Source: an uncultured Gammaproteobacteria bacterium
GTDB lineage: Bacteria; Patescibacteriota; Microgenomatia; UBA8517
Direction: 5' to 3'
NCBI GenBank assembly: GCA_964600575.1
Contig: CAZRJH010000001.1
Location: 223,683 to 287,682, forward strand
Length of the DNA stretch: 64,000 bases
The notes under the pieces are model-generated. The model did not search any database. It was not told the origin of the DNA and was given only the letters and a program-made list of their open reading frames with translations. Shown piece by piece: positions 16,097-48,982 of this stretch. Made by a program: the position numbers and the translations under genes. Each line of letters begins with the position of its first letter. Within the stretch, counting starts at the first letter, position 1.

Positions 16097-16996
16097 TTAT
16101 TTACTAACACCAGACGGGCTATAAATCGCAAACTCGAAATCACTGGGTATTTCTGACCAACTCTGGAATACGTTCAATCTTCTTTGGCTTTGTCCCGCAA
16201 CACCACTAGAATCAACAGCCAGGCCCTGTGTTGGCAATAATGCACCGCCCGCATAGGCCACATTAAAACCGACATTATGATTTTGATCTGTGTTGTAAAA
16301 CATTCTGACTCTGGCATAATTAAGCCCTCCTTGGGTGTTGTATATACCCGCAGCTATTCCTAAAGTCGACAAATCTATGGTCTTTTGGAACGCAAAGACT
16401 TCACCGTTTATGGTGCAAGTTCCGGGATCTGGGCTAGAGAAGTTGTTTGTGGCAATTCTAGATAAATTAGGATCAAAAGCGGCTCTAGCAATTGTAGCGG
16501 TTGCAGGATTTCCGGGTGTAGTCTCGTAAACCACAGTAACCTCAACTGCGGGAGTGGATGCTAGCACCGAACTGGTACCGCTTTTACCCCAACACACCTG
16601 AAGATATCTTCCTGTGAAACAAGGGTGTTGGGCGTCGCAGACTACTGAGCCGGAACTATCGTGATCCATAAACCAAATAGTTGATGTTTCACCCGGAGAA
16701 AGATTAACGGGATAAACCAACGACTGTTGGCCTGAGGCAAAGTTTGTAACAGTGCTTGTAAAGTTAGCATTGCCGATCTGGCTTGTGCCACCAGTACCCA
16801 ATATTAAAGCCTGTTCGACTCCTGCTTCTGCTGCAGAAAACGCCCGGATTGCGTCTTCTGATCTAGAAGAAACGGCGACATCGGTTACACTCCTTGCCAA
16901 GACGAAAAGAACCAAAGTAAGAACTACGGCTAACGACAGTAGAACCAAAACCAAGGCTTGGCCGCTGCTATTTTTATTATCCTCAAAAAAACCCAT
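16097..16996 (-). CDS. PilX-like pilus assembly protein (PilX_N domain), membrane anchored
   Basis: SGQALVLVLLSLAVVLTLVLFVLARS...AIRAFSAAEAGVEQAL resembles PilX_N (..ALVVALLVL..TLLG..A...S......AF.AAEAG). First gene of the pilM-N-O operon. Confidence 0.5.
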   Translation of the reverse strand: MGFFEDNKNSSGQALVLVLLSLAVVLTLVLFVLARSVTDVAVSSRSEDAIRAFSAAEAGVEQALILGTGGTSQIGNANFTSTVTNFASGQQSLVYPVNLSPGETSTIWFMDHDSSGSVVCDAQHPCFTGRYLQVCWGKSGTSSVLASTPAVEVTVVYETTPGNPATATIARAAFDPNLSRIATNNFSSPDPGTCTINGEVFAFQKTIDLSTLGIAAGIYNTQGGLNYARVRMFYNTDQNHNVGFNVAYAGGALLPTQGLAVDSSGVAGQSQRRLNVFQSWSEIPSDFEFAIYSPSGVSK

Positions 16997-17016
16997 TAAC
17001 TAATTAAACATCAAAG

Positions 17017-17640
17017 TTAGAACAACTTCAACATAAATTTCAAAATAAGAAATATTGTCTTAATTGCTATTTCCAAATCCAGGAAAAAATTGGCCTTTTC
17101 CAAATACTCACCGTCGAGTTTCATCCATTTTTGAAAGGACATGTCGTGAGATCCATTTGTTACCCATTCACTTGTAATACCGGGTTTGGCAATATGTCTT
17201 TTAAAATCGGTTTGGCTTAGTCTATCGGCTTCGTTCAGCGGCAATGGCCTGGGGCCGACAATGCTCATCTCTCCTTTTAAAACATTTATCAACTGAGGCA
17301 ATTCATCTAGGCCTATTTTGGATAATATTTTTCCTACCCCTGTAAACCTCGGGTCGTCGGTGATTTTAAATACAGGGCCGCCCACTTCGTTTAACTTTTT
17401 TAAGGACTTTTTTCTTGATTCCGCTTCCATAATCATAGACCTAAATTTATATATTAAAAAAGTTTTACCTTTGTAACCGGTTCTTTTTTGTTTAAAAATA
17501 ATGGGAGGTCCCTGAGAGAAAAATAAAACCAAGCATATTACCGCAAAAACAGGGATGGCAAACAATAGGCCAAAAAATGCCACTACTAGATCAAAAATTC
17601 TTTTACTGGGTGACTCTAGATAAACGGAATATTTGTTCAT
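17017..17640 (-). CDS. Undecaprenyl-phosphate sugar-phosphate transferase (bacterial sugar transferase, WbaP/PglC-type initiating enzyme)
   Basis: KRIFDLVVA..., PQLINVLKGEMSIVGPRP signature; single N-terminal TM; about 200 aa small PGT form. Confidence 0.8.
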   Translation of the reverse strand: MNKYSVYLESPSKRIFDLVVAFFGLLFAIPVFAVICLVLFFSQGPPIIFKQKRTGYKGKTFLIYKFRSMIMEAESRKKSLKKLNEVGGPVFKITDDPRFTGVGKILSKIGLDELPQLINVLKGEMSIVGPRPLPLNEADRLSQTDFKRHIAKPGITSEWVTNGSHDMSFQKWMKLDGEYLEKANFFLDLEIAIKTIFLILKFMLKLF

Positions 17641-19325
17641 TATTTAGTTATCAAATATCTTCCCATTACCAAAAAATCTATCGGGTTGTCGTAAAAATCG
17701 TATAACGCCTGTTCCGGTTTCTCTACAATGGGCTCGCCGTCAACATTATAGCTAGTATTGAGCACACACGGAATTCCTGTTTTGTTGTAAAAAGATTTTA
17801 TGACCTTATAGTACAACCCGTCTGTCGGATTTACAGTTTGCACTCGACAAGTTTTATCTTTGTGTACGACGGCGCTTATTAAATCTATTTTTTCAGATTT
17901 TGTTGGTAAGCAATAGTTCATAAAAGAGAAATTTGTATCGCTTTTGGGAACTTCGAAAAGAAAATTAATTTTATTTTCTAAAACCGAGGCGGCAAAAGGT
18001 CGAAAGGGCTCTCTTTTTTTTATAAGATTTACCTTGTTTTTCATCTCACGATTTTTCGGATTTGCAATTATGGACCTTGACCCGAGGGCCCTTGGTCCAA
18101 ATTCCATCCTACCTTCAAACCAGCCGACGATTTTGTCTTTAATCAACAAATCCGACACTCGTTCCGACAATTCGGTATCACTTTTAAACTTAACAAATTT
18201 TACTTCCTTAATTTTTAGAAGCGTTTCGATATACTCGTCAGAATAGAAATTGCCTAGTTTTAATGATTTCAAAGTTTTTCTTTTCGGATTTTTACCTGTC
18301 AACATATAAACAAAAAGTGCCGCCCCGATTGCACAGCCGCTGTCAACTGTAGCACCGGGATTGAAAACATTTTTAAATTTAGTTTTTTCAAAAATTTTGC
18401 CGTTGGCCAATGAATTTAAAGCAACCCCTCCACCTAACGATAAATTCTTGGATAAAGTTGAGTCATAGAGTTTGTTTAAAACCGAAAAATATATATCTTC
18501 TGTTACCTGCTGTATGCTTGCCGATATATCTTTGTGCCTTTTGCTTATTTTTCCACCGTAGACGCGCGGTTTGCCGAGAAGTTTTTCGAACTCTTTAGTC
18601 CACATCTTGTGAGATCTGTCGTATGAAAAGTATTTTTTATTTACAACAAAATTCCCGTCACCCTGAACATTAATCATTTTAAAAATTTGTTCTTTATATA
18701 TGGGACTGCCGTAAGCGGAAAGACCCATCATTTTGTACTCATCATTGTTAACTTTAAATCCTAAATACGAAGTGAAGGTGGAATAAACAAGCCCTAATGA
18801 GTTGGGGAAATTTAGACTCACTATTTTTTTAAGTTTGTTGCCCGACCCCTTCCACAAAACAGTTGATTCGTATTCACCAACGCCGTCAATTGTTAAAACA
18901 GCCGATTCTTTGTATGGAGACAAAAAATAAGAAAAGGCCGCGTGAGAGGTATGATGCGGCACAAAAAATATTTTGCCTTTAAAACCGGTTTTTTTTCTAA
19001 TTGTTTTTTCGACTTGAATCTTTTCACCAAGTGCGTCTTGAATGGTGTTTAAAAAATACTTAAAGGAAAAAGGAAATGTTTCAACATAAGTCGTGAGTAT
19101 CCTCTCTAGCTTAAGAACTGGTTTTTCGTAATATGCGATCGCATCCAAATCGCCAATAGCTATCCGAGAAAATTCTAGACACTTGTTAATTGCTTGCTCG
19201 GGAAAACCGTTGTCATGTTTAATTCTGGTGAATCGTTCTTCTTCGAAAGCACAAACAACCGATCCGTTCTCTATTATGGCGGCTGCGCTGTCGTGGTAAT
19301 AACTAGATAAACCTAATATTTTCAT
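17640..19325 (-). CDS. Carbamoyltransferase (NodU/CmcH family)
   Basis: MKILGLSSYYHDSAAAIIENGSVVCAFEEERFTRIKHD N-terminal ASKHA-like domain and a YrdC-like C-terminal half; 561 aa. Confidence 0.75.
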   Translation of the reverse strand: MKILGLSSYYHDSAAAIIENGSVVCAFEEERFTRIKHDNGFPEQAINKCLEFSRIAIGDLDAIAYYEKPVLKLERILTTYVETFPFSFKYFLNTIQDALGEKIQVEKTIRKKTGFKGKIFFVPHHTSHAAFSYFLSPYKESAVLTIDGVGEYESTVLWKGSGNKLKKIVSLNFPNSLGLVYSTFTSYLGFKVNNDEYKMMGLSAYGSPIYKEQIFKMINVQGDGNFVVNKKYFSYDRSHKMWTKEFEKLLGKPRVYGGKISKRHKDISASIQQVTEDIYFSVLNKLYDSTLSKNLSLGGGVALNSLANGKIFEKTKFKNVFNPGATVDSGCAIGAALFVYMLTGKNPKRKTLKSLKLGNFYSDEYIETLLKIKEVKFVKFKSDTELSERVSDLLIKDKIVGWFEGRMEFGPRALGSRSIIANPKNREMKNKVNLIKKREPFRPFAASVLENKINFLFEVPKSDTNFSFMNYCLPTKSEKIDLISAVVHKDKTCRVQTVNPTDGLYYKVIKSFYNKTGIPCVLNTSYNVDGEPIVEKPEQALYDFYDNPIDFLVMGRYLITK

Positions 19326-19326
19326 A

Positions 19327-19602
19327 TTAAAAAGGTGACTCTAGGTCTTTTTTGTTAAACAACGAATCGGGAACAATCCAAAAGTTGTTAGCCTTATTAT
19401 CTTTTTTAGAAAAATATTTAAAAAACTTGGCAAAGCCCACTCCAAGAACATAAACAGGAATTAAAATGGTTTTAAGAATAAATATGTTAATTTTTTTAAT
19501 CATTAAATGAGAGGGTAGAGAAATATTGGAACAGGGGAAAATTGAACAAAAACAACCAACAAAGAAACAATAATTAAAAATATAAAAAGCGGAATTAACC
19601 AA
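19327..19602 (-). CDS. Small hydrophobic membrane protein, function unknown
   Basis: 91 aa, two predicted TM segments, tightly packed in the operon. Confidence 0.3.
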   Translation of the reverse strand: MVNSAFYIFNYCFFVGCFCSIFPCSNISLPSHLMIKKINIFILKTILIPVYVLGVGFAKFFKYFSKKDNKANNFWIVPDSLFNKKDLESPF

Positions 19603-19638
19603 ATTTTTTTAGTTTTGGTTATTAGAATATAAATTTGC

Positions 19639-20643
19639 CTAAGGGTCTCCATAAGTTTTCATCAAATATGAACCAATTGAGTTCACCACCAAATTGTCAA
19701 AATCTCTTGTTGGGTGAAGTTTGTCGGTTGTGTCTTTTTGCTCATAAGCTTCTGGGCCACCATATGGAAGGGATTCTTCAACCATATCTACATATGGAAT
19801 GCTTCTGTTATTCAACAGTACTTTAATAGTATTTAATTCGCCTGTCCACTGTGATTTACCGAAAATGGGATATATAACAAAAAGAAGATCAGTTTTATTT
19901 TGTGAAGAAATGTGCTCAAGTGTATCAAGCGACTTGTTCATGGAGGCAAGTTTTGAATTCCAAACTTCTGTGCTAGGCCCAGCGTTCTCAAATTTTTTAT
20001 CTAATAATATATTCTTAAAAAGCAAAACCCGATAGATACTTGATTTTTCAAACATGAACTTGTTCAACTTAATACTAGGTTCTTCGGGCGATGACATAAA
20101 AGTTAATTTTCCATCCAAATTAAGAACAACCGGCGAAAAATCGAAGTCGTTTAGTGTAAACTGTATAATTAGGAGATCTGGATTCAACTTTGTTAAATGA
20201 TCTTGAAATAGGCTTACTTCTTGTTTAGTGTTATATGACTCCACGCCAATCTTAACTACTTGAACTTTTTTTTCTTTAAATATGCCCATAGAAATGATAT
20301 TGTCCTCCAAAGGCTTACCTATATTGGCCCGGTTTGTATTGGAGTCTCCCAAAATCATTATTTTAAATGTGTCATCGTCTTCATCTCCCAAAACTTTTGA
20401 GTCATTTTGTTCCTCCAATATTTCGGGGAAAGAACAGTTTCCCCAAACAGGCTCAAAACCCAAGTCAGACGAGGGTTTAAAACAGTTTTCATTGTTAAAG
20501 TTGTCATCAAAACTACGCCAATCTTTTATTGAATTTTCTAGGATCTTTGGCTCGATATATGTGCTGGAAAACATGTCAGAGAATACCAAAGCCAACGAGA
20601 GGAAAACAAAAAAAAGGGTCGCAGAAGTTATTTTGCTTTTCAT
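19639..20643 (-). CDS. Secreted SGNH/GDSL-type hydrolase-like protein
   Basis: Signal-peptide-like N-terminus; FKIMILGDSNTN GDS(N) motif block I. Confidence 0.5.
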   Translation of the reverse strand: MKSKITSATLFFVFLSLALVFSDMFSSTYIEPKILENSIKDWRSFDDNFNNENCFKPSSDLGFEPVWGNCSFPEILEEQNDSKVLGDEDDDTFKIMILGDSNTNRANIGKPLEDNIISMGIFKEKKVQVVKIGVESYNTKQEVSLFQDHLTKLNPDLLIIQFTLNDFDFSPVVLNLDGKLTFMSSPEEPSIKLNKFMFEKSSIYRVLLFKNILLDKKFENAGPSTEVWNSKLASMNKSLDTLEHISSQNKTDLLFVIYPIFGKSQWTGELNTIKVLLNNRSIPYVDMVEESLPYGGPEAYEQKDTTDKLHPTRDFDNLVVNSIGSYLMKTYGDP

Positions 20644-21305
20644 TTTTTGACAGCAACCAAGGACTTAACAAACAAACCATATTTTTCTTTGTAAATTTTT
20701 GCTTCAGGAAAAAGGGTTTCCATATCAGAATAACTCAATAAGTTCCAATCGCTATGTATATGCCTAATGCCCAACCAGTTGATTATCTTTCCAATAAGTA
20801 TTTGGATATTTCTAGGTAAAAAAATAAATAGCACAGGCATTAGCGTATGACTTTCAACTAGAAAGTATTTATTAGGCGTCTGAACAAAAAAACTTTTACC
20901 AACCCTTGCTATCTCTTTAGCAAAAGCTTGTTGTACAACAAAAGCTTTTCTTTTAAAAACTTTGTTACTCATGCCTAAAATTGCCTTTTTGTTTCCGGTT
21001 ACATGTTCTATTACCGAATTGCATAGTACTATATCAAAAGACTTGTCTTTAAAAGGTAGTTTAAAGTCTGCATTAATTATCTTTGTTTTGAAATCATGTT
21101 GCTTATTGGCAATATCAAGTAATTCAATATCATAATCTGCAACAACAATATTTTTTCTGTTAAGTTTGTCTGGGAATTTTTTTATAATTTCGTTTATATA
21201 GCTCCCATCACCTCCGCCAAGATCCAAAACAGTCTGTGTTTTTCGGGGTTTAATGCTTTTAACAAAAAGTCGAGCCCTACTGTTTCTAAAACTATTCAGT
21301 TTCAT
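20640..21305 (-). CDS. Class I SAM-dependent methyltransferase
   Basis: VLDLGGGDGSY SAM-binding motif. Confidence 0.6.
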   Translation of the reverse strand: MKLNSFRNSRARLFVKSIKPRKTQTVLDLGGGDGSYINEIIKKFPDKLNRKNIVVADYDIELLDIANKQHDFKTKIINADFKLPFKDKSFDIVLCNSVIEHVTGNKKAILGMSNKVFKRKAFVVQQAFAKEIARVGKSFFVQTPNKYFLVESHTLMPVLFIFLPRNIQILIGKIINWLGIRHIHSDWNLLSYSDMETLFPEAKIYKEKYGLFVKSLVAVKK

Positions 21306-21354
21306 TTATTTAAGCAACATTATATCTAGAAGATAACGAAATTTCATGGTATAA

Positions 21355-22143
21355 GTGAATGCAAAAATGAAGGTTAAATTTAAAACTGATTACGCAAAAC
21401 GTTTTGCAGAAATTCTACTCGCACTTACAGAAAAAGAAAGTAAGATTAGATACGCCAGAACATTTTTTGGTAAAGGCTGGGTATTGCTTTTTCCTGTTAT
21501 TCAAATGCTAGTAATGGGTTTTATTTTTTCTTTCTTTATTAAGTTACCAAATTATTTTCAATTCTTGTTTGGAGGGCTTTGTATTTGGAATTTTTTTTCA
21601 ATTTCCATAACACGATCTTGCGTTAGTTTGGTCTCAGAGAGAATGTTGGTTCAAAAATCAAAGTTTCCAGTTGAAACGGTACCACTTTCGGTTGTTCTTT
21701 CAAATCTGGAGAACCTCATAATATCCGCAGTGTTGTTCATACTCTATTTGTTAATTACTAACAGCCTCGAGAGTGTCGATATCGCACTTCTATCTTACTC
21801 TCTAATAATGCTTATACTGCTAACGTCTGGTATTTCACTTCTGGTTTCGGTAATAAACGTATTTAGAAGAGACGTAAATTTCATAATACAATCCTTAATT
21901 CCTTTATTGTTTTATGCCACACCTATTTTATATAGACTTGACGACATTCCCGAAAAATTTCGCTTCGTTTTAATGCTAAATCCTATGAGCAGTATTGTAG
22001 TGGGATTCAGGTCTGCTTTCATGAGTCAGGAAACAACTCCATTTAATATGGTTGTTATTAACATTTTTACAGTGACGTTTATTTTTATATTGGGAATCAT
22101 GGTTTTCAAAATCAACAAAAACAAAATACCAGACTATTTATAA
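21355..22143 (+). CDS. ABC-2 type polysaccharide/teichoic-acid exporter permease (Wzm/TagG-like)
   Basis: Six TM topology; ABC-2 family N-terminal pattern (RYARTFFGKGWVLLFPVIQML); followed by the ATPase. Confidence 0.7.
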   Translation: MNAKMKVKFKTDYAKRFAEILLALTEKESKIRYARTFFGKGWVLLFPVIQMLVMGFIFSFFIKLPNYFQFLFGGLCIWNFFSISITRSCVSLVSERMLVQKSKFPVETVPLSVVLSNLENLIISAVLFILYLLITNSLESVDIALLSYSLIMLILLTSGISLLVSVINVFRRDVNFIIQSLIPLLFYATPILYRLDDIPEKFRFVLMLNPMSSIVVGFRSAFMSQETTPFNMVVINIFTVTFIFILGIMVFKINKNKIPDYL

Positions 22144-22144
22144 A

Positions 22145-22885
22145 ATGGAAGATTCAAGGGAACTTATAAAATTAACAAACGTAACCAAAGATTTTTATAT
22201 AAAAAGAGGCACCTTTTTCGCCGTAAAGTCTCCAAAGAGAGTTACCGCGGTAAAAAATATTAATTTAACTATTTCAAAAGGCGAACGAATAGGAATAGTG
22301 GGGGCAAATGGTTCAGGAAAAACAACTCTTTTAAAAATTATCTCTGGAATAACAACACCGACAAAAGGAGTAGTGCAAGCAATAGGCAAGATAGTATCAA
22401 TAATGAAAATTGAGGCTGGTTTTAATCAAGATCTCAACGGGTATGAAAATCTAAAACTTAACGGCTTGTTGACCGGAATGTCCGGCAAGGAAATTGAGAG
22501 AAAGACTAAAAAAATAATTAAATTTTCCGAGTTGGAAAAGCATATGGACTCACCACTTTATACTTATTCAGATGGGATGCGCTTTAGGCTTGCTTTGGCT
22601 ATCGCGTTTGCAAGTGAGTGCGACCTGCTTTTGATAGACGAGGTGATAGTCTCAGGAGATATAAATTTTCAAGAAAAGACAATAGACACTATAAACAGCA
22701 TTCAAAAAAAGGGAGGGGCAGCTACAGTTATTACTTCACACATACCTTCCTTTGTTTGGGCATTTTCTAATGTTTTTTATGAAATGCAAAACGGAGAAAT
22801 CAAAAAAATTTCTTACAAAAAAATGGAGAGCGAGGTTAAGAGAGTAGATGCAACTTGGAGAAAAAAGATCTTAACAAAAATATGA
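22145..22885 (+). CDS. ABC transporter ATP-binding protein (Wzt/TagH-like, no C-terminal carbohydrate-binding domain)
   Basis: Walker A GANGSGKTTLLK, signature YSDGMRFRLALA, Walker B LLLIDE. Confidence 0.8.
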   Translation: MEDSRELIKLTNVTKDFYIKRGTFFAVKSPKRVTAVKNINLTISKGERIGIVGANGSGKTTLLKIISGITTPTKGVVQAIGKIVSIMKIEAGFNQDLNGYENLKLNGLLTGMSGKEIERKTKKIIKFSELEKHMDSPLYTYSDGMRFRLALAIAFASECDLLLIDEVIVSGDINFQEKTIDTINSIQKKGGAATVITSHIPSFVWAFSNVFYEMQNGEIKKISYKKMESEVKRVDATWRKKILTKI

Positions 22886-26765: not shown

Positions 26766-26774
26766 GTTTATTTA

Positions 26775-28110: not shown

Positions 28111-28230
28111 AATGTAAGTATCTAAAGATTTTGCGGTATCAAAAAAAATTTGTTAAATATAATGTAAAAAAAGTCGGGAAGTTCAAATATGTAGTTGCCT
28201 TTAAGTTTAAATAAAATATTTGCAACAAGT

Positions 28231-30398: not shown

Positions 30399-30399
30399 T

Positions 30400-34963: not shown

Positions 34964-34986
34964 TTAAGTAAATTGATTCTACAATC

Positions 34987-40256: not shown

Positions 40257-42336
40257 GTTAAATCATTTAAAAAAACCGAGTAAATTCCAAAAAATAATCT
40301 TAACAGTAATTTTAGGATTATTTTTAACTATTTACTTCACTTTTCCGCTCATAGCAAACCTCCGGACCAGCTATCCAAAAAATTCAGATTTTTATCTTAA
40401 TGCATGGACTTATTGGTATACCGCCAAAAGTGTAGTGGACGGATCTATTTTAAATACCCAACAATTTTATAATACCGACCACCTTTATCCGTTCCCCGGG
40501 ACATTAGCACAACAAGACTTTATGCTGCTTCCGTCTGTATTGCTATATTTACCGATTTTCACACTCACCAAAGACCACATATTAAGCACAAACGTCTTAA
40601 TATTTATGACTTATTTTTTGAATTTTGCTTCCTCTTTTTATTTTATCAAAAAAATAACAAGGGAAACTTTAACCGGCTTGTTTGGAGCAATGGTATTCTC
40701 GTTCTCTCCAAGCGTGATTAATCTCTGGGGCGGGCATTTGGAATACCTTTCCCGTTTTATAATTCCTCCGTTAACTTACTTTTTTTTGAGTTATTTAAAA
40801 ACACCAAAAATATTAACCGGTTTTGCTTTTTTTGCCTGTTACACGGCTTTATGGTTTACATCAATAGTGCTAGCTTTGCTAACAACGGTTTTGTTCCTTG
40901 TTGCCGGAATAATTTATTTTTTTTATAAACTTTTTTCGGCAAACAAACACAAAAGCAAATTAAAACTAGTTTGTTTTGCTTTAACAAGCATTATTTTTTT
41001 ACCTCTAATTTGGAGGTTTTTTAATTTTTATATTGATTATTCTAAAAAAGAAAATTTTACAAGGCACGAAAACGAGATTCGACAATACACAGTGAGCCCG
41101 CTGGACTTCGTGATACCGTTTCCAAACAATATTCTTTTTGGATTTTTGGCCAAATCTACAGAAAACTTAAGAAACAAGAACACCGGTCACGAATTCAATT
41201 ATCAGGAGCACACCATGAGTTTTGGATATCTTCCTCTAGTCTTCTTGGTTGTATCCGCTATTTTTTTTACCAAAACCAGGCGTAAAACCAATAAAAAGTT
41301 AGTTGCAATTATTGCTCTTGTTTGTTTAATTTTAGCTTTTGGACCGAAAATCTATATTAATAACACCGAAGTAAAGCTTCCGTATTACTATATAAGTCAG
41401 GCGTTTCCTCCACTCCAAGCCATACGCACTCCAACCAGAATAAAATATATAGGTTTGTATTTTGTTGCAATTTTGGCATCTTACGGTTTAAGTTATCTAG
41501 GCAAAAAGTCAGGTAAATATAGGAGAATTATATTTGTATCGAGTCTTTTGGTTCTAACCCTGGAGTACAAAACACAATTTACAATAAACAAACCCGAGTA
41601 TAAAAGGATAGATTACGATATTTACAAAAAAAAGGTTTTATTTTTACCAATCAAGGACGACTTCGAAAAGCTAAACAATGCATCTTACTCAATCTACAAC
41701 ATTGTCCACAACATAACTACCGTAAACGGATCTACGGGATCAGAATATCAAATTAACGGTTTTTTTCCTTTTGTTTACAATCTAAAAACTTATTCTTTTA
41801 ATGAATATTGGTTTGAACTTCTAAGTTCGATCGGCGTTGATTTCGTAATAGTCAGTAAGACCGAAAACAATTTTGTAGACATCCAGACAAGTATGGCTAA
41901 AGTTGGGGAGTTAACACTTAAAAGCTTGAAAATTTATGAGGACGAAAATTGGTTAATTTTGGATGTAAAAAAGTTTTACAAGCAGGGAGTTGTTTGCCTG
42001 GACCCTTCAGTTAACAACCTCGGGATAAAATTCAATCTTATGTCTGATCCCTTATCAAATAAACATCTGCTTATTTATAGCGGAATCAACAACAGAGACT
42101 GCAATTTAACATTTTTAAATCAAAACAGGTATGTTTCTATGCAGTACAAGCCGTCTTTTCAAAAAACAAATAACAAAACTTACAAAAACTACCTAATTAT
42201 GCCTGTCTACCTTCAAGCAGGCGGGGAATATTCGAACGAGATTCTGCTGGAAAATCCAAACAATGAACAAATAAATGAAGTCGAGATTGATTTAAACGGA
42301 AGTATATTTATAGTTAAAAACTCAAAAGATTATTAG
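40192..42336 (+). CDS. Large polytopic membrane protein, putative GT-C / YfhO-like glycosyltransferase
   Basis: About 13 N-terminal TM helices followed by a roughly 300 aa extracytoplasmic C-terminal domain; 714 aa. Confidence 0.35.
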   Translation: MKNKLNKIIFIFEKYLFLVLGMLNHLKKPSKFQKIILTVILGLFLTIYFTFPLIANLRTSYPKNSDFYLNAWTYWYTAKSVVDGSILNTQQFYNTDHLYPFPGTLAQQDFMLLPSVLLYLPIFTLTKDHILSTNVLIFMTYFLNFASSFYFIKKITRETLTGLFGAMVFSFSPSVINLWGGHLEYLSRFIIPPLTYFFLSYLKTPKILTGFAFFACYTALWFTSIVLALLTTVLFLVAGIIYFFYKLFSANKHKSKLKLVCFALTSIIFLPLIWRFFNFYIDYSKKENFTRHENEIRQYTVSPLDFVIPFPNNILFGFLAKSTENLRNKNTGHEFNYQEHTMSFGYLPLVFLVVSAIFFTKTRRKTNKKLVAIIALVCLILAFGPKIYINNTEVKLPYYYISQAFPPLQAIRTPTRIKYIGLYFVAILASYGLSYLGKKSGKYRRIIFVSSLLVLTLEYKTQFTINKPEYKRIDYDIYKKKVLFLPIKDDFEKLNNASYSIYNIVHNITTVNGSTGSEYQINGFFPFVYNLKTYSFNEYWFELLSSIGVDFVIVSKTENNFVDIQTSMAKVGELTLKSLKIYEDENWLILDVKKFYKQGVVCLDPSVNNLGIKFNLMSDPLSNKHLLIYSGINNRDCNLTFLNQNRYVSMQYKPSFQKTNNKTYKNYLIMPVYLQAGGEYSNEILLENPNNEQINEVEIDLNGSIFIVKNSKDY

Positions 42337-42365
42337 TTTAATTTATTTAATGTAGTATTTAATAA

Positions 42366-43430
42366 ATGTTCAGTATCGAAAAAAAACTTACACACAGCTT
42401 GTTCGACCACTTTGCTTTTCTTGTCGTGACCGTCTTAATTAATCTCGGTTCGCTCGGGGTATTTACGGCAATTTTTCTTTATTTGGGTATTGTTTTGGCA
42501 TGCTTGCTCGTTGGGTTTAAATTAGTAATTCAAAAAAATATATATTTACCTCGTCACTATGTAATTTACCTTGTATTTATAGGCATACTGGCTATACACA
42601 CCTCAAAGTTCAGCGGAGATTTTTATTACTTTTGGATTTACGCTTCAGGTGCTGTTTTTTGGCTTTTGGCCGCAAATTTTAAAAATGTTTTAGAAGAACA
42701 CTTTTACTATCTGATTTACACGCTCGGCTTATTAATGGCAACTTTATTTATAACAACTTCCATTAACCCCATATCAACACCCAATTTGGCAACTCTTTTT
42801 GCCCCTGCAACTTCCGCCGTAAAACACAGCAATATAGGCGATTTATGGTCAATAATAATTGTTGCCTCTGTAATCTATTTTCATAAAAGAAATAAGGTAA
42901 TCGGTTTGATATTTATCGCCGTTGGTTTACTTTTTATTGCGACATCCTTTTCAAGATCTGCTGTTGTAGCATCTGTTATTGGAGTCGGGTTTGTAATTTT
43001 GAAAACCAGATGGGTCCTGTTTAAGAAGATATTTCCGCTTTTTTTGGCTGTATTTGCTGTTATTTTTATCACCATCAGTCTCTCTAAATCTGTCTTGTTT
43101 TCGCGGCCTTACTTTGCAGAAGCACTATCAGCACTTTTCAACCGTCCGCTTGGAACGGGTTTAGGTAATTTTAGCCTTATAAGTACTTCTTCTAATTTTG
43201 CCCACAGTATTTTTCTTGAAGTTGTGTCTGCGCTTGGAGTGTTTTCGATACCTTTTATAGTCTGGTTAGGTTTTATGGTAAAAGACATTTTGGTTGCAAG
43301 TGGGGAGGATATAGGCTATTCCGCGGTGGAACTTACAATACTTGCAATATTTATGTTTACGCCCAACTATATTATATTTGGCCTTGTTTGGCTTTGGTTT
43401 TTGACAATCGGACTAAAAAGAGAAGACTAA
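42366..43430 (+). CDS. O-antigen-ligase-like (Wzy_C) membrane protein, paralog 1
   Basis: Polytopic; loop FSRSAVVASVIG and SRPYFAEA shared with the paralog at 43989. Confidence 0.5.
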   Translation: MFSIEKKLTHSLFDHFAFLVVTVLINLGSLGVFTAIFLYLGIVLACLLVGFKLVIQKNIYLPRHYVIYLVFIGILAIHTSKFSGDFYYFWIYASGAVFWLLAANFKNVLEEHFYYLIYTLGLLMATLFITTSINPISTPNLATLFAPATSAVKHSNIGDLWSIIIVASVIYFHKRNKVIGLIFIAVGLLFIATSFSRSAVVASVIGVGFVILKTRWVLFKKIFPLFLAVFAVIFITISLSKSVLFSRPYFAEALSALFNRPLGTGLGNFSLISTSSNFAHSIFLEVVSALGVFSIPFIVWLGFMVKDILVASGEDIGYSAVELTILAIFMFTPNYIIFGLVWLWFLTIGLKRED

Positions 43431-43449
43431 ACTTGAATTTGTTTCAAGA

Positions 43450-43914
43450 TCAATTTCTTTCCAAAGAAATACCTAGAGAATTAATCGTTATAACCACCGG
43501 CATTGTTACCCAAAAACTTCCTTGCGGTAATGTTCCGCCAAAAGCCTCATACTCATCTTTCTTAAAATGCACTCTGGTTAAACTCCCGTCCTCGTTTTTT
43601 ATTCCAATTACATAAACATACTTTTCTCCGTCTATTACTCTTTGTTCCAAATCTGCCGAGACAAAAGTGCCGTAAATTTTAGTCTCTTGTCTAGAAGCTA
43701 TGTTTGAAGTTGTATAGTCGTAAATTTTTTCTATACTGGTCTTATCAACAAGTTTTATCTTCCTTTCCGAAGCAACCACAACCTCCTCAACCTTTACTTT
43801 ATCCTTTCTTATAATGTAAACGGTAAGGAAAAATCCGCCTACACACAGTATCAAAGCAACAAGGACAACAATAATAACCCGCAAATACTTTTCTGAGCCA
43901 TTATCAGAATCCAT
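43450..43914 (-). CDS. Membrane-anchored hypothetical protein
   Basis: N-terminal TM (LRVIIVVLVALILCVGGFFLTVYII) plus a small soluble domain. Confidence 0.35.
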   Translation of the reverse strand: MDSDNGSEKYLRVIIVVLVALILCVGGFFLTVYIIRKDKVKVEEVVVASERKIKLVDKTSIEKIYDYTTSNIASRQETKIYGTFVSADLEQRVIDGEKYVYVIGIKNEDGSLTRVHFKKDEYEAFGGTLPQGSFWVTMPVVITINSLGISLERN

Positions 43915-43988
43915 AATTTATAATAAACCAAAGTTCTACATAAAACAAAACGTTAGTTTAAAAACAAAATGTTATAATTTGCAAAACT

Positions 43989-45077
43989 GTGGCAATTGAA
44001 TATATTGCAAAAATCTTAGACAAAAAAATAATTTCTTACTTTTTTTTGTTTTTTCTTTCACTAAATTTAATCTTAGCTTCAATTGGGGGCAGTATGACAA
44101 CTCCACTTTTTTTGTCGTTTATTATTAACTTGTTTTTTTGGGGAGTTTTGTTAACGGGTGATCATCCAATAACTTTCCCAAGGTATTTTAAGTTATATGT
44201 TCTTTTTTTGGCCATAGGCCTTTTGCACTACATTTTTTTTAAGGGAAATATAAAGTTGTATATGATTCTTGTTTCCGGAGCGATATATTGGATTACCGCC
44301 TACAATTTTAAAAGTCAGATTTCTAAATTATTACCATTTGTTTTACAGGTCTTGTCTGTCGTGATTGTAATATTTTTTTTGGTAAATATCGGTAAGGATC
44401 TAAGATTCGACGTAACAGAGAACCTGTTTCATCCAACTGCAACCTCTAAACATAACCACATCGGTGATCTTTTTGCTCTGACACTGGTGTCAAATATAAA
44501 ACATGTATCTGCAGGTTTTAGATTTAGCAACATAGTTTTTATAGTTGTTTCCTTGATATTTATGGCGATTTCTTATTCAAGATCTGCTGTTGTTTCACTT
44601 CTTATCTCTATTGCTTACTTGTTTTCGACATCAAAAAACAAGCAAAAAATTTCGTTATTTTTAAAAATACTTTTTGTAGTGGGAGTATCCCTGGTTGTTT
44701 ATTTTGGTCTTCAGAAAACGACTATTTTTTCAAGACCGTATTTTGCCGAATCTTTTTGGTTACTTTTAAAAAATCCGTTTGGCATCGGTTTTGGCAATTT
44801 TCCCTTGTATAACCACAATATCCAAGTGGTTCATAGCATTATTATGGAGATAATAGTAGGCTATGGTTTGTTTTCTATTGTTTGGATTTATTGGTTTTAC
44901 ATCTCCTTAACTCAAGTTCTGAAATCCGATAACAATAAGGTGCTAAGTGCAGTATATTTAGGCATTATTACAAACTTGGCTTTTGACCGCACATATCTCA
45001 TACCTACTTTTGTATGGCTCTTGTTCGTTATTTTAGGAGTACTTGAGCAGGATACCGGGGCAGACGTATATTTATGA
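43989..45077 (+). CDS. O-antigen-ligase-like (Wzy_C) membrane protein, paralog 2
   Basis: YSRSAVVSLLISIAY, SRPYFAESF motifs paralogous to 42366..43430. Confidence 0.5.
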   Translation: MAIEYIAKILDKKIISYFFLFFLSLNLILASIGGSMTTPLFLSFIINLFFWGVLLTGDHPITFPRYFKLYVLFLAIGLLHYIFFKGNIKLYMILVSGAIYWITAYNFKSQISKLLPFVLQVLSVVIVIFFLVNIGKDLRFDVTENLFHPTATSKHNHIGDLFALTLVSNIKHVSAGFRFSNIVFIVVSLIFMAISYSRSAVVSLLISIAYLFSTSKNKQKISLFLKILFVVGVSLVVYFGLQKTTIFSRPYFAESFWLLLKNPFGIGFGNFPLYNHNIQVVHSIIMEIIVGYGLFSIVWIYWFYISLTQVLKSDNNKVLSAVYLGIITNLAFDRTYLIPTFVWLLFVILGVLEQDTGADVYL

Positions 45078-45083
45078 TGAATA

Positions 45084-45112
45084 TTGACATTTATTTTTAT
45101 TAGTCCTATAAT
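45084..45112 (+). promoter_or_regulatory. Consensus sigma70 promoter TTGACA-17-TATAAT, ATG 7 nt downstream (leaderless candidate)
   Basis: TTGACA at 45084-45089, a 17-nt spacer, TATAAT at 45107-45112; CDS ATG at 45119. Confidence 0.55.
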
Positions 45113-45118
45113 ATAGCC

Positions 45119-46627
45119 ATGTTTACAGAACGAAAACTACCACTGTGGGCACGATTGACTTCGGGATTTGTTATCGGAGCACTTCTTTCAGGTTGTATGG
45201 GAAAAACCTTTGGAACAGTTACCCCAACGGCAGAGTCAGCTTCACCTACACCTATGAGTGAACCTTACTGCGACTCGCACATGCTTACAATCGAGCCGCC
45301 TATGGATTTAGACGCCATCAACCCTTATGTGCTACCCATAATTTCCGAAAATCTAATGGGTCCTAGCGGAGTTGGTAGAATCACAGGTTTGAGCAGAGTT
45401 ACAAACCCTTCCCCCGACTACGTCTCCAATGTCAAAAAATCAGCACAAGACAAAAATCTCCCTTTGGATGCAGCTAAGGCAACGGTTGTCGAGTTCGGGA
45501 TGGAAGGAGACTCTAACAAATCTTGTGCACCCTTAACTATGATTTTAGGAGAAGAAAAATCAGACGGAACCCAACCTGCTTATTTAGGTTTTGCCACGGA
45601 ACAAATTGACTCTGATCAAAACGGCACCCCTGATTTGGATGTGCTCGTGCCTTCGTTCGACGGCAATATTGATACTTTTTTACCGCTCGGACAAGTAGAT
45701 GCCAATCCGGGAGACAGCGTTGTTCATGTAGGCACAATCGACCAACTGGACCCCAACTCAATAAGTCCAATTTTTGAAATAGACCAGGAAAGCGGTAAAG
45801 TTACATTCTATCCGCCTTTTTACCAGGGTGAAGGCTCCGGATCAGAAGCGGGAGTACAGGTAGAATCTGCAGCTAATTTTGTTAATGTCTCTTATAAGAC
45901 AGAGGGTGCAAATCCTACTAATATCTTAACACCAACCCCGTCCGCACCTGTCACAGAAGTAACCGTAGCTCCTCCTGCTACGGAAACACCCGAAGCCAGC
46001 CAATTCCAAGTTTGTTCAGCAGAAAATTATGCAAATTGTGCCATACCATCCCAAGATTTGTTTAACGGTAATTACTTAAACTGGCTTAAAACTTTACAAG
46101 TTGAACAATTTGACCCTGCGAAAGTTGAACAACTTCAATGTTTCGGAAACAGTCAAGAAATAACATTTGTAGGTAGTCCAAGTAAAAATAATTTTGCAAA
46201 TCCTGATACTGCAATGGTAAAGCGAGGCTTTACATTTGGGGTAGTAACTTTACAGCCGGGGGAAGTGGGTTACGATTTTCCGCAAACCAGGACCTTCCTG
46301 ATTTTACCCGCTTTTTCTTACTCAAAGAGTTTAAATACGGGAGTTTGGAACCTTTTTGCATACAGAATAGACGGTCTGGCTCCCGAAAAAGTAGTTGAAT
46401 TTGCTAGCGGTTGGGCAAAATCCGGCAATCTTATGGTTATGTCAAGCCAATATGAGTCGGGGACGGGTACAGAAGTTGGTAATCCTTACCACAGAAATCC
46501 TTTGGTTGTTAACACATTCAACCTTTATCCCGATATGCAGACCAAACTAGACAATTTTGGTGAAAATTGTGACCCTGGCTACATTAGTGACCCGGGAATA
46601 ATTCTTGAAACAAGTTACACACGCTAA
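45119..46627 (+). CDS. Putative lipoprotein / secreted surface protein
   Basis: Signal peptide with lipobox-like LLSGC; Thr/Pro-rich linker (TPTPSAPVTEVTVAPPATETPE). Confidence 0.5.
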   Translation: MFTERKLPLWARLTSGFVIGALLSGCMGKTFGTVTPTAESASPTPMSEPYCDSHMLTIEPPMDLDAINPYVLPIISENLMGPSGVGRITGLSRVTNPSPDYVSNVKKSAQDKNLPLDAAKATVVEFGMEGDSNKSCAPLTMILGEEKSDGTQPAYLGFATEQIDSDQNGTPDLDVLVPSFDGNIDTFLPLGQVDANPGDSVVHVGTIDQLDPNSISPIFEIDQESGKVTFYPPFYQGEGSGSEAGVQVESAANFVNVSYKTEGANPTNILTPTPSAPVTEVTVAPPATETPEASQFQVCSAENYANCAIPSQDLFNGNYLNWLKTLQVEQFDPAKVEQLQCFGNSQEITFVGSPSKNNFANPDTAMVKRGFTFGVVTLQPGEVGYDFPQTRTFLILPAFSYSKSLNTGVWNLFAYRIDGLAPEKVVEFASGWAKSGNLMVMSSQYESGTGTEVGNPYHRNPLVVNTFNLYPDMQTKLDNFGENCDPGYISDPGIILETSYTR

Positions 46628-46664
46628 CCTCAACAGTTGCTCCATTAAAAAGAGTGTGATTTAA

Positions 46665-47201
46665 TTGATTTGGATGAAGCTACATTATCGTAAGTTAGGC
46701 ATTGTCTTTATAATGCTGTCAATTATTTTTTATATTCTGTACGTATTTTTAGGAGTGGAGAAAATTCAACAACCCTTCATGTACACAAACAAGCTCGAAT
46801 CTCAGATTAAGGAAAATTCGATTAGACAACTAAGAGATCATCCCAACTTAAATTTTTATAACGGTATATTTGCCCAAAAAATATTTTTTAACGACAAATT
46901 ATACGGTTTATGGATTGTTAACTTTAACGGTTTAAAGTACCACAAAGTTTCAGCATCAACAAAGTTTTCTTATTTCAGTTTATGTAAAGATCAAAGATGG
47001 ATGAACCCCCAACAGCGCCTTTCAAAAAATGATAATATAAATTATAAGGACTGGTTGAAAATGATAAGACAAGGCGATTATATTCAGGTGATTACAGATA
47101 AAGAAAACAATGCCGTCACTACGGAGATAATAGGCTATGATTGGTGGGCTTTTTCCAGCAAAATACCAGTCAACTATTTTCAAACAAGATGTCAAAACTA
47201 A
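46665..47201 (+). CDS. Membrane-anchored hypothetical protein
   Basis: N-terminal TM then a soluble domain; no motif. Confidence 0.3.
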   Translation: MIWMKLHYRKLGIVFIMLSIIFYILYVFLGVEKIQQPFMYTNKLESQIKENSIRQLRDHPNLNFYNGIFAQKIFFNDKLYGLWIVNFNGLKYHKVSASTKFSYFSLCKDQRWMNPQQRLSKNDNINYKDWLKMIRQGDYIQVITDKENNAVTTEIIGYDWWAFSSKIPVNYFQTRCQN

Positions 47202-48982
47202 TTAAAATTTTACTAACAGTATTTGGTCTTTTTGTATTCTTCGGTATCTCGGCTAAATTAAATCCCGTAAACGCGCAATGTGTATGCGCCAACTGGGAAT
47301 ATCATCCGTACACATGCACAGTAGACGAAAAAGATGCTTCGGGTAATGTAATAGGTTCCACAACGGGTTGGTGCTCATATGCAATTTGTACGGACAACAA
47401 TTCTTACAACGGCTGTACATCTCCTCAATGTGATCCTGGCACGTACCCTTGTAACCGTGCTAGTGATGGGTATTGCTGCCCTCAAAACGAACCACAACCA
47501 ACAACAAACCCGGGATGTACTTCCAACTGCTGTAGCGGCTGTAGTTGTACCAATAGTTGCACAGGAAACCCAGCAACATGTGACCAAACAGCACCCACCA
47601 ATTTAAGTACAACAAGACTGTCATCTACCAGTGTTCTATTGCAGTGGACGCCTGGAAACCCAGGAGGCTCAAATCCATATCAAGCCCTTTATGTAAGCAC
47701 CAACCCAGACCCGCAAACGGGTTGCGCAGGAACTTCGGGAGGTACAAGTGTCTGTCCTGTAAAACAGGATAGCAGTACTACTGCAATGGCATCTACTCAG
47801 TCGTCATATACAGTTAACAATCTTTCCGCAAATACTGTCTATTACTGGACTGTCATGAACATCCAAGATGCAAACTGTGCGTCTTACTCCACCTCCTCTT
47901 CACCATACGTATCTTCTTGTAGTGTTACGCCTTCAAGTGTAACCATTAACCACGGTTCTACTCAGCTAATTACATCAAGTCTTACATCCGGAACCGGAAT
48001 CACACAGGTTACATTTACAAGCAACGATACTTCTAAAGTTACGGTTAGCCCTGGTAGCGACGCAAGTTACTCCTATCAAACAACTGCTACGGGTGTTGCA
48101 CCCACCTCCTCAGCAGTAACGATTACCGAGAATGTTTATGTAACAGGTGGCACGATAGGGTGTACAAATAACATAACAGTAAATGTTTTGGCCGCTTCTC
48201 CTTGGTGGCAGGTAAAAGACGCAGATGTTGCGAGTACCGGGACTTTAAACAGCGCAGTTCCAACCGGAGATTATTTTAGTCTAGCCGGTGCAGGAGGATA
48301 TCCAGGAATCCCTTCTTACATTGTATCTACAAGCCTGGATAATCTTAATGTTTCTCAGCTGGGGTGGCTTGTTCAATCAGATAACCCGACGGCAAGGCAA
48401 TACGATTACAGTTTCTTTAACAATCAGGTACCCGCCGATGCTGTAATAACAACCCTATCAAGTAATGTTTTAGACCAGGCTACCATTAATGCAAATGTAA
48501 CACCTTCTTACGGATATTATTGGTATAGATATGACGGATCAACAAGCGGTTTAGACTTAACAATCAACTCCGACTTAGTTTTGGGAACCAGAAAGGTAGT
48601 AGTATTAGCCGAATCATCCAGTGTGAATATTAGTGCTTTGGTAAACTTTACAAAAGGAAGCGGTTTTTTCCTTATTGTTGCAGGCAAGGACACCTCTGGA
48701 TCCAAAGGTGATATTGTCATAGACCCGGCCTTAGGCGGAAATGCTTTTGACTTAGAGGGAATTTATGTGGCTTCGGGGTCGTTTCAAACAGGCGCATCAA
48801 CGCTACCATTAAGAGTTCGCGGTTCTGTTGTGGGTTACGACTCAGTATTGTTACAACGAGACTTAAGCGGTTTAAATCTAGCCACGCCAGCAGAATATTT
48901 TGAATACGCTCCCGATTTATCTCTCTTGTTCCCCTCTGTTCTGGGTGCCCGAAAGATAACCTGGAAAGAAGTTGCTCCATAA
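47189..48982 (+). CDS. Secreted Cys-rich surface protein with fibronectin-III-like/Ig-like regions
   Basis: Signal peptide MSKLIKILLTVFGLFVFFGISA, then a block of more than 25 Cys (CVCANWEY...CCSGCSC), FN3-like LSTTRLSSTSVLLQWTPGNPGG...YYWTV, and Ser/Thr-rich Big-like segments. Confidence 0.5.
   Translation: MSKLIKILLTVFGLFVFFGISAKLNPVNAQCVCANWEYHPYTCTVDEKDASGNVIGSTTGWCSYAICTDNNSYNGCTSPQCDPGTYPCNRASDGYCCPQNEPQPTTNPGCTSNCCSGCSCTNSCTGNPATCDQTAPTNLSTTRLSSTSVLLQWTPGNPGGSNPYQALYVSTNPDPQTGCAGTSGGTSVCPVKQDSSTTAMASTQSSYTVNNLSANTVYYWTVMNIQDANCASYSTSSSPYVSSCSVTPSSVTINHGSTQLITSSLTSGTGITQVTFTSNDTSKVTVSPGSDASYSYQTTATGVAPTSSAVTITENVYVTGGTIGCTNNITVNVLAASPWWQVKDADVASTGTLNSAVPTGDYFSLAGAGGYPGIPSYIVSTSLDNLNVSQLGWLVQSDNPTARQYDYSFFNNQVPADAVITTLSSNVLDQATINANVTPSYGYYWYRYDGSTSGLDLTINSDLVLGTRKVVVLAESSSVNISALVNFTKGSGFFLIVAGKDTSGSKGDIVIDPALGGNAFDLEGIYVASGSFQTGASTLPLRVRGSVVGYDSVLLQRDLSGLNLATPAEYFEYAPDLSLLFPSVLGARKITWKEVAP

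Follow-up and report, generated by a model that had tools for sequence, protein, structure and literature searches.

A glycan locus between type IV pilus genes encodes compact Wzy_C/WaaL-like paralogues and candidate surface-protein acceptors in a probable member of the Patescibacteria

Ligase-like proteins of the glycan locus

A glycan-gene-rich block occupies positions 17.0-49.0 kb of a 64-kb stretch of contig CAZRJH010000001.1 (the whole stretch is referred to as the window, and positions are counted from its first nucleotide), where it lies between two sets of type IV pilus genes. The block encodes an initiating transferase, glycosyltransferases, an ABC exporter and three proteins related to O-antigen ligases, and the titles of related genomes indicate, indirectly, that the organism is probably a member of the Patescibacteria (candidate phyla radiation, CPR). 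Two of the ligase-like proteins are short and encoded close together: paralogue A (42366-43430, plus strand; 354 amino acids (aa), 12 predicted transmembrane (TM) helices) and paralogue B (43989-45077, plus strand; 362 aa). They are 30% identical over 321 residues (BLASTP, E=6e-46), and both contain the motifs FSRSAVV and SRPYFAE. An initial annotation of this DNA had described both as Wzy_C-domain proteins. Their paralogy and shared motifs were borne out, but neither protein matches the domain directly (no Pfam Wzy_C match even at E<=10, and no NCBIfam match at E<=0.1), and the superfamily and fold assignment comes from the wider family.

Relatives of the short paralogues were gathered by a word-indexed search, which gave 16 sequences, and the alignment of these was used in an exhaustive HMMER search, which returned approximately 700 cluster representatives at E<=1e-3 and 180 at E<=1e-30. 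Nearly all of the best 150 members listed are 350-390 aa long, apart from partial sequences. Comparison with PglL, WaaL and Wzy profiles, which had been proposed with the initial annotation, placed the family rather than the two paralogues themselves: when 55 diverse members were scanned singly, 47 matched Wzy_C (E<=0.01; best E=5e-10), and none matched the PglL-specific PglL_A, Wzy_C_2, O-antigen_lig, O-ag_pol_Wzy or EpsG at the same threshold. A weak precomputed Wzy_C match was also present in the counterpart of paralogue B in L002/L003 (L numbers denote the related loci described below). The short family further aligned with the family of the third, longer ligase-like protein (Wzy_C-long) with a probability of 96.4% (hhalign, E=1.1e-9, 249 columns). 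Searches of PDB sequences with paralogue A alone or with a 17-sequence profile gave noise or nothing, while a 55-sequence profile retrieved a single entry, the ligase WaaL of Cupriavidus (7TPG; E=7.5e-4), over the region GxGxGxF...HNxxxE. The AlphaFold2 model of paralogue A (pLDDT 81, pTM 0.84) has 12 long helices, and its best match among solved structures was again WaaL 7TPG (probability 1.00, TM 0.56/0.51), with RodA next. Together, the family profiles and the model support the classification of paralogues A and B as divergent, compact members of the Wzy_C/WaaL-fold superfamily.

Across the short family, H154, R197, G263, G265, G267 and F269 are invariant, and R247, H280 and E285 are conserved in at least 90% of members; paralogue B retains all of the family-invariant residues. 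In the hhalign register, R197, R247 and H280 correspond to R215, R288 and H338 of E. coli WaaL, in a pairwise alignment that is itself non-significant (E=0.12). These WaaL residues are functionally important and are conserved in PglL (PMC3643930). The loops that carry these conserved residues, the Arg/Arg/His set among them, are alternate loops of the modelled helices and are poor in other Lys and Arg residues, whereas the intervening short loops are Lys/Arg-rich. By this charge pattern, the putative active site faces the outside of the membrane, which is also the case in WaaL and in O-oligosaccharyltransferases (O-OTases). The Arg/His conservation that the initial annotation had suggested looking for is thus present, in register with WaaL and in loops predicted to face outwards. 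The corresponding alignment with the E. coli O16 polymerase Wzy was non-significant (E=0.15) and its aligned segment was non-catalytic.

Wzy_C-long (31510-33045, plus strand) belongs to the canonical O-antigen-ligase family and is the sole protein in the window above the Pfam Wzy_C threshold (51.4 bits versus a cut-off of 31.7); it was absent from the list in the initial annotation. Because the longest open reading frame (ORF; 511 aa) overlaps a glycosyltransferase gene, the true start is probably at 31678, which gives the 455 aa of the public-assembly gene calls. A PDB sequence search with the 511-aa form gave noise or no match. The gene is followed by one for a single-pass membrane protein with a DUF4330 domain (33058-33891, plus strand; Pfam, 33.8 bits), a family on which a literature search found nothing relevant.

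Conserved partners and gene content

Approximately 20 related loci, drawn from representative genomes, metagenomes and exact-protein look-ups, were annotated with the window proteins and the family hidden Markov model (HMM). They include Candidatus Woesebacteria RBG_16_42_24, a "Patescibacteria group bacterium" and one metagenome-assembled genome (MAG) titled Gammaproteobacteria (L004, CAZRGC010000004.1). The last is the closest public relative: its proteins show 44-82% identity to their window counterparts, the two GyrB proteins fall in a shared 90%-identity cluster and RelA is 82% identical. Its title is probably wrong, as its gene content and the other relatives all indicate Patescibacteria. 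A recurrent gene order was found in Woesebacteria and other Patescibacteria loci, namely (Wzm/Wzt), Wzy_C-long, DUF4330, two family 4 glycosyltransferases (GT4), a TPR-like protein on the minus strand, short Wzy_C, a small single-pass protein (TM154 family), a lipoprotein family and a protein with fn3/Ig domains. Within this module, Wzy_C-long measures 417-545 aa and the short Wzy_C proteins 355-411 aa, the latter often in two or three copies, and there are one or two members of the lipoprotein family. Wzy_C-long orthologues always precede the DUF4330 gene (L002, L009, L012, L015, L017, L022, L033 and L034), and the pair is present in every related locus that extends that far; Wzm/Wzt lies upstream of Wzy_C-long in L012, L022, L033 and L034. 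The glycosyltransferase and tailoring genes between these anchors vary (PIG-L, WecG and an epimerase in L002; RGP in L034), as is expected for surface-glycan diversity.

Of the partners of the short enzymes, the TPR-like protein is a single-pass protein encoded at 39558-40256 (minus strand; probably 208 aa, 39558-40184) with a sub-threshold TPR_8 match (E=1.2e-3). Its N-terminus is positively charged and its C-terminal domain is helical, and the family alignment shows conserved helical repeats and two conserved Cys residues; the charged N-terminus leads to the prediction that the C-terminal domain lies outside the membrane. The gene is found just upstream of, and divergent from, a short enzyme in 13 loci from about ten distinct lineages, with sub-threshold TPR matches. 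In L034, an 899-aa protein (16439-19138) matches the short-enzyme profile over its N-terminal 400 aa (probability 97.3%, E=2e-11), and the last 80 residues of its extension of about 500 aa align to the TPR-like family (E=1.9e-4, probability 47%); judged by these alignments, it may be a natural fusion of a short enzyme with the TPR-like component. The second partner, TM154 (43450-43914, minus strand), is a 154-aa single-pass protein encoded between the two paralogues and a recurrent companion of short enzymes, with homologues directly after a short Wzy_C gene in L002, L004 (two copies), L030, L032 and L022. A kinship between TM154 and the DUF4330 protein was considered and was unsupported by BLASTP.

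Directly after paralogue B lies a group of genes for predicted surface proteins. It begins with a sigma-70 consensus promoter, TTGACA-17-TATAAT (45084-45112, plus strand), which ends 6 nt before the ATG of a lipoprotein gene and is the single perfect match in the window (0.03 expected by chance). The perfect promoter is conserved ahead of the lipoprotein orthologue in L004 (14313-14341), and the arrangement suggests a near-leaderless, possibly leaderless, and strongly expressed surface-protein operon. Perfect matches were also seen just past a short Wzy_C gene in L022, L024 and L025. The predicted lipoprotein (45119-46627, plus strand; 502 aa) has an LLSGC lipobox and Thr/Pro/Ala-rich linkers, for example PTPSAPVTEVTVAPPATETPEAS, and members of its family lie between a short enzyme and the fn3/Ig gene in L004, L030, L032, L012 and L022. 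A 178-aa single-pass protein (46665-47201, plus strand) is followed by a membrane-anchored fn3/Ig surface protein of 613 aa with 25% Ser+Thr (47141-48982, plus strand; fn3 25.5 bits, weak Big_2), which consists of a Cys-rich region, fn3 and Ig-like domains and a conserved C-terminal domain, and which AlphaFold2 models as tandem beta-sandwich domains. Its homologues lie downstream of short enzymes in L002, L004, L006, L012, L022, L030 and L032. Members of this family share a C-terminal region of approximately 270 aa (PWWQVKD...WKEVAP), while their N-terminal modules are swapped (fn3, Big_2 and, once, TSP1 and Hint-like); no fold match was found for the C-terminal domain, parts of which were modelled at low confidence. 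Identification of the protein as an S-layer (surface-layer) protein by fold was rejected, as only generic fn3/Ig matches were obtained, those to SbsB/SbsC being via Ig-like domains and not diagnostic. Because they adjoin the short enzymes across lineages, the lipoprotein and the fn3/Ig protein are the best candidates for glycan acceptors on sequence grounds.

The remainder of the block was surveyed with Pfam and NCBIfam scans of all ORFs of at least 90 aa in six frames over the whole window, which also underlie the statements below on what the window contains or lacks. Its left part, on the minus strand, encodes a small polyprenyl-phosphate glycosyl-1-phosphate transferase (the initiating PGT; 17017-17640, 207 aa; Bac_transf 193 bits, and NCBIfam EPS_sugtrans over the C-terminal domain only), a carbamoyltransferase (17640-19325; Carbam_trans_N/C 262 and 200 bits), a GDSL-like protein (19639-20643) and a class I methyltransferase (20640-21305; Methyltransf_11 44 bits), with a 91-aa ORF on the same strand between the carbamoyltransferase and GDSL-like genes (within 17640-21305). 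Then, on the plus strand, come the ABC-2 permease Wzm and the 246-aa ATPase Wzt (21355-22885; ABC2_membrane 60 bits, ABC_tran 84.5 bits), which by sequence form a glycan exporter whose Wzt is too short for a C-terminal glycan-binding domain, and a Methyltransf_24 methyltransferase with a decarboxylase dependent on pyridoxal phosphate (PLP; 22855-24758), a pair kept beside Wzm/Wzt in the Woesebacteria locus L012 and in L033. Three further plus-strand genes (24755-27554) encode an IMPDH/GMP-reductase-like protein (IMPDH 360 bits), an inosine-uridine nucleoside hydrolase (IU_nuc_hydro 189 bits) and a phosphoribosyltransferase (Pribosyltran 28.5 bits). This trio is retained at the equivalent position in the close relative L033 (3818-6621), and it may provide a non-sugar or nucleoside-derived substituent or may merely serve salvage. 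On the minus strand follow a TylF-like methyltransferase (27496-28110), a fused MFS/spermidine-synthase-like membrane protein (28231-29724; NCBIfam NF037959 MFS_SpdSyn 152 bits) that is also found in L033, a HAD hydrolase (29721-30398) and the family 2 glycosyltransferase (GT2) that the longest Wzy_C-long ORF overlaps (30797-31570; Glycos_transf_2 55 bits).

Four GT4 genes (Glycos_transf_1, 81-110 bits) lie beyond DUF4330, one on the minus strand (33881-34963) and three on the plus strand (34987-36231, 36218-37306 and 38407-39594); locus comparison assigns GT4b and GT4d to the conserved core module. Two polytopic membrane proteins are encoded among and after them on the plus strand. One is a GT-C-like protein of 389 aa with about 10 TM helices (37248-38417; NCBIfam "cell surface glycopolymer formation protein", E=3.8e-8, below the cut-off). 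The other (40192-42336; 714 aa) has a large C-terminal domain and no Pfam match, and is possibly a GT-C-type enzyme; its 716-aa counterpart in L033 carries PF19830 (DUF6311). Large GT-C-like polytopic proteins recur in or near the module, as the 389-aa and 714-aa/DUF6311 types and as weak PMT_2 matches in L002 (11055-12392) and L034, and suggest additional extracytoplasmic glycosylation steps. The initial annotation had outlined much of this content: the initiating PGT, carbamoyltransferase, Wzm/Wzt, PLP decarboxylase, four GT4 and one GT2 were all matched by Pfam or NCBIfam. Of its four methyltransferases three are clear and the fourth is the MFS/spermidine-synthase-like fusion, while its SGNH esterase fell below threshold (Lipase_GDSL_2 20.8 bits versus 32.9). 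A block rich in glycan genes does span 17.0-49.0 kb, much as in the continuous island that had been proposed, but the nucleoside-related trio is contained in it as well.

The position of the block between two type IV pilus loci was confirmed by matches on either side (13.8-17.0 kb and 51.0-61.3 kb). After housekeeping genes at 0-13.2 kb, the left flank comprises, all on the minus strand, a PilO-like gene (13770-14444; Pfam PilO 21.3 bits, E=3.3e-4, just under the cut-off), a presumed PilN gene assigned by position alone (14454-14981), PilM (14986-15996; PilM_2 171 bits) and a 299-aa PilX_N-like protein with one N-terminal TM segment (16097-16996; PilX_N E=1.7e-3, sub-threshold), which is counted here with the pilus flank and not with the island. 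To the right, RelA/SpoT (49107-50969) separates the island from nine pilin-like genes, among them that of the major pilin (56542-57186), with PilD (55788-56636), PilC, PilT and PilB, all on the minus strand at 50966-61302 (N_methyl, T2SSG, Peptidase_A24, T2SSF and T2SSE matches, with a pilin motif scan). No secretin domain was found in any window ORF, in agreement with the initial report that pilQ is absent. The GC content is 0.32-0.36 over 18-44 kb versus 0.39-0.44 in both flanks. On the minus strand, pilB-pilT-pilC-pilin-pilD-pilins come first, followed by about 34 kb of RelA and island and then by pilX-like-pilM-pilN-pilO, as if a low-GC glycan locus had interrupted a single type IV pilus supercluster. 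Simple insertion of a mobile island was set aside, as the window has no tRNA gene and housekeeping genes occupy the pilus-island junction in relatives. Four to five tandem pilin paralogues (52388-54571, minus strand) share a conserved 5' segment of approximately 109 nt, which lies in frame upstream of the likely start and places a second motif, GFTLMN, before the genuine cleavage motif GFTLIE. The segment may represent a conserved 5' untranslated or ribosome-binding-site region, or an unusually long duplicated leader.

Proposed pathway and alternative roles

We propose that the block at 17.0-49.0 kb is an ABC-transporter glycan locus resembling Gram-positive S-layer glycosylation (slg) clusters, in which three WaaL-fold enzymes transfer an undecaprenyl-pyrophosphate-linked glycan mainly to surface proteins, and we put the probability of this reading at roughly 0.5. 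The small PGT would start the glycan on undecaprenyl phosphate (Und-P), the GT4 and GT2 enzymes would lengthen it in the cytoplasm and the methyl- and carbamoyltransferases may tailor or cap it, after which the short Wzm/Wzt transporter would move the lipid-linked chain out and the three WaaL-fold enzymes, on the outer face of the membrane, would pass it to acceptors. The canonical enzyme of 455-511 aa would pair with the DUF4330 protein, while the two compact paralogues of 354 and 362 aa would work with the separate TPR-like and small single-pass proteins as partners for acceptor recognition or scaffolding. The likeliest acceptors would be secreted or surface proteins, foremost the lipoprotein and the fn3/Ig protein. 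Gene content, paralogy, superfamily and fold, residue register, predicted topology and synteny are shown by the analysis; we infer the undecaprenyl-pyrophosphate-glycan donor, the transferase rather than polymerase role and the protein acceptor. Glycosylation of S-layer or other surface proteins, which the initial annotation had given in brackets as an alternative, fits the comparative evidence better than does that of pilins, but no S-layer domain was found.

Several points weigh against this proposal. Protein glycosylation by the locus is a prediction from sequence, and the three ligase-like enzymes and the GT-C-like proteins could equally serve a non-protein glycopolymer. Paralogues A and B themselves fail every curated HMM, their alignments to single E. 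coli WaaL and Wzy sequences are non-significant, and ligases, O-OTases and polymerases are inseparable by sequence alone; the literature likewise describes O-OTases as hard to tell from WaaL by sequence (PMC3643930). The TPR assignment is sub-threshold, and the alignment that suggests its fusion to a short enzyme has a probability of just 47%. No recognised S-layer domain was detected in the candidate acceptors by Pfam, NCBIfam or fold search. Assignment to the Patescibacteria, finally, is indirect and follows the titles of related MAGs, of which one is titled Gammaproteobacteria.

An alternative that we regard as unlikely, yet deserving of real weight, is that the WaaL-fold enzymes attach the glycan to a non-protein acceptor such as a membrane glycolipid, a lipoglycan or the cell wall; in a monoderm-like CPR envelope, they would be functional analogues of WaaL whose product is a capsule-like or secondary cell-wall polymer. 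WaaL itself is the best match by structure and by sequence, the classical route to O-polysaccharides is an ABC-transporter pathway with a ligase as its next step, and GT-C-like proteins of the kind found in the locus and its relatives are typical of extracytoplasmic glycopolymer decoration. In addition, no LCP domain was detected in any window ORF, so that another enzyme would be needed to anchor a wall polymer. However, protein recognition is a better fit to the TPR-like partner and to the constant presence of secreted-protein genes nearby, and no lipid A or lipopolysaccharide (LPS)-core genes were seen in the window. It is considerably less probable that one or more of the three proteins are Wzy-type polymerases acting outside the membrane. 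In favour of this reading, Pfam Wzy_C covers some polymerases too, several paralogues per locus could reflect different linkages and PHPT-type PGTs are more usual in Wzy-dependent pathways, a point noted for WsaP (PMC2943079). Against such a role, no Wzx/MOP flippase (Polysacc_synt/MOP) and no Wzz/PCP protein were detected in the window, relatives retain the Wzm/Wzt exporter of the window together with the module, the conserved Arg/Arg/His residues fit the signature of ligases and OTases, O-ag_pol_Wzy and EpsG were found in none of the 55 family members, and the alignment with O16 Wzy covers a non-catalytic segment only. A ligase or oligosaccharyltransferase role is thus more likely than a polymerase role for the paralogues, because the locus is of the Und-P/ABC-transporter type and lacks Wzx and Wzz.

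The initial annotation had favoured a dedicated pilin glycosylation system, in which the short paralogues would be pilin O-OTases of differing specificity for the major and minor pilins downstream, and we consider this improbable. The island is flanked by two parts of the pilus gene set, all on the minus strand, and in the nearest clade alone (L002, L004, L030 and L032) pilin arrays lie 2-9 kb past the surface-protein genes. Known pilin O-OTases share the Wzy_C domain and its essential His (PMC9829042), and glycosylation of pilins in Saccharibacteria has been predicted but not demonstrated (PMC11623550). The nine pilins of the window are somewhat enriched in Ser+Thr (0.15-0.27 versus a window median of 0.134), which is weak evidence for a pilin acceptor; the Ser/Thr-rich C-terminal regions that had been ascribed to them thus hold as a moderate overall enrichment, but none ends in Ser or Thr (final residues Y, R, R, P, L, I, E, Q and E). 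TfpO and TfpM, by comparison, modify C-terminal Ser/Thr residues and are encoded directly downstream of their pilin (PMC9829042), whereas 5.9 kb separate paralogue B from the nearest pilin gene here (50966-51475, minus strand), which lies on the other strand and beyond four genes including RelA/SpoT. In L030 and L032, NUDIX, hydrolase, tRNA-synthetase and RelA genes separate the surface-protein genes from the pilins. A relaxed pilin detector that recovered 9/9 window pilins, with no false positives among the other window proteins, found no pilin within 10 kb in L012, L022, L006, L015, L021, L014, L009 and L017, eight loci that nevertheless carry short enzymes and the other partners. PglL_A and Wzy_C_2 are absent from the 55 family members scanned, and the window enzymes are 60-250 aa shorter than any known O-OTase (PMC9829042, table 2). 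The co-inheritance of island and pilins that the initial annotation had proposed to check in related genomes is therefore confined to the nearest clade, with housekeeping genes in between. Because distant relatives keep the other neighbours without a pilin gene within 10 kb, pilin adjacency looks like clade-level synteny rather than conserved functional coupling. The enzymes may have a link to pilin glycosylation, but the evidence does not support one; a general system could act on pilins as well, and nothing found is specific to them.

Under the proposed surface-protein reading, the locus belongs to a familiar type, in which an Und-P/ABC-transporter pathway for a glycan is combined with transferases of the Wzy_C family. 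What is new is the CPR lineage, the compact, unannotated and duplicated subfamily, the split TPR-like partner and the conserved set of candidate-acceptor genes. The Saccharibacteria pilus study, in which pilin O-glycosylation was predicted only, called the underlying processes unexplored (PMC11623550). Our literature searches found no prior description of such a system and nothing relevant on CPR O-antigen ligases or S-layer glycosylation. To our knowledge, there is no experimental knowledge of glycoconjugates or protein glycosylation in the CPR/Patescibacteria. The wider claim, that this is a conserved slg-like system for general protein O-glycosylation in Patescibacteria (at least in a Microgenomates/Woesebacteria-like clade) with the smallest known OTases (about 350 aa), is tentative, and we lean against it. 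If it is correct, an OTase could consist of a bare 12-TM WaaL core with acceptor recognition encoded apart, in the TPR-like and single-pass partners, and the duplicated enzymes would each have their own class of acceptors, such as abundant surface lipoproteins or adhesins in one case and pilins in the other. The CPR glycoproteome, including the predicted pilin glycosylation, would become directly testable, and minimal OTases would be of use for glycoengineering and bioconjugates and would bear on acceptor recognition in WaaL-fold enzymes. If the enzymes are instead ligases for a wall or lipid polymer, the locus would be an ordinary surface-polysaccharide cluster in an unusual lineage. The locus defines a compact Wzy_C subfamily with reproducible partners (TPR-like, single-pass, DUF4330, lipoprotein and fn3/Ig proteins), and thereby provides concrete enzyme and acceptor candidates.

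Comparison with known glycosylation systems

Known Wzy_C-family enzymes resemble those of the window to different degrees. WaaL (Cupriavidus metallidurans 7TPG; E. coli) shares with the modelled enzyme a 12-TM GT-C(B)-type fold, for which it is the best solved match, and is the sole PDB sequence match of the family profile; the equivalents of R215, R288 and H338 are on the outer face, and WaaL too acts after an ABC-transporter pathway. The window enzymes are 50-60 aa shorter and have an outer loop of about 40 aa in place of the large periplasmic domain, and a lipid A-core acceptor is not expected in a secretin-less, monoderm-like organism. The pilin-specific TfpO (PilO) and TfpM enzymes are likewise members of the Wzy_C superfamily with the essential His, are small for OTases (420-470 aa; PMC9829042) and share with the window enzymes the presence of pilins in the same region, but the window enzymes are smaller still and have no pilin gene directly upstream and no pilin ending in Ser or Thr. 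PglL of Neisseria and PglS of Acinetobacter also have the Wzy_C domain and the conserved Arg/Arg/His with a downstream Glu, and modify many substrates with low-complexity Ala/Pro/Ser/Thr segments. They measure 520-600 aa, in contrast to 350-390 aa in the short family. In PglL, moreover, PglL_A (PF15864) and PglL_B motifs flank Wzy_C, and 21/31 pglL homologues abut pilin genes (PMC3643930), whereas PglL_A was not found in the 55 members scanned and the window enzymes do not abut pilin genes.

By this comparison, the closest known analogues are the slg clusters that Gram-positive bacteria carry, as in Geobacillus stearothermophilus NRS 2004/3a and Paenibacillus alvei (WsaP/WsfP). The window enzymes are much smaller and duplicated, and they are accompanied by a third, longer Wzy_C protein with its DUF4330 partner; the window locus also lacks rml genes, has a probable CPR host and has, as candidate acceptors, a lipoprotein and an fn3/Ig protein without a recognised S-layer domain. 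In other respects the two are alike. The Geobacillus slg cluster combines the PGT WsaP, Wzm/Wzt, a methyltransferase cap and a nearby S-layer gene (PMC2943079), and the window locus similarly has a PHPT-family PGT with a Wzm/Wzt exporter, methyltransferases within the cluster, a host with a monoderm-like envelope and neighbouring surface-protein genes, which here encode candidate acceptors. The gene for WsaA, a TPR protein of 168 aa, immediately precedes that for WsaB, an O-OTase with a Wzy_C domain, while WsfB and PglL carry TPR motifs themselves, and both WsaB and WsfB are described as predicted OTases (PMC2943079). The pairing of a Wzy_C-family enzyme that lacks TPR motifs with a small TPR or TPR-like protein encoded upstream, as in WsaA/WsaB, or its fusion into one protein, as in WsfB, has a possible counterpart in the short enzymes and TPR-like proteins of the window and its relatives.

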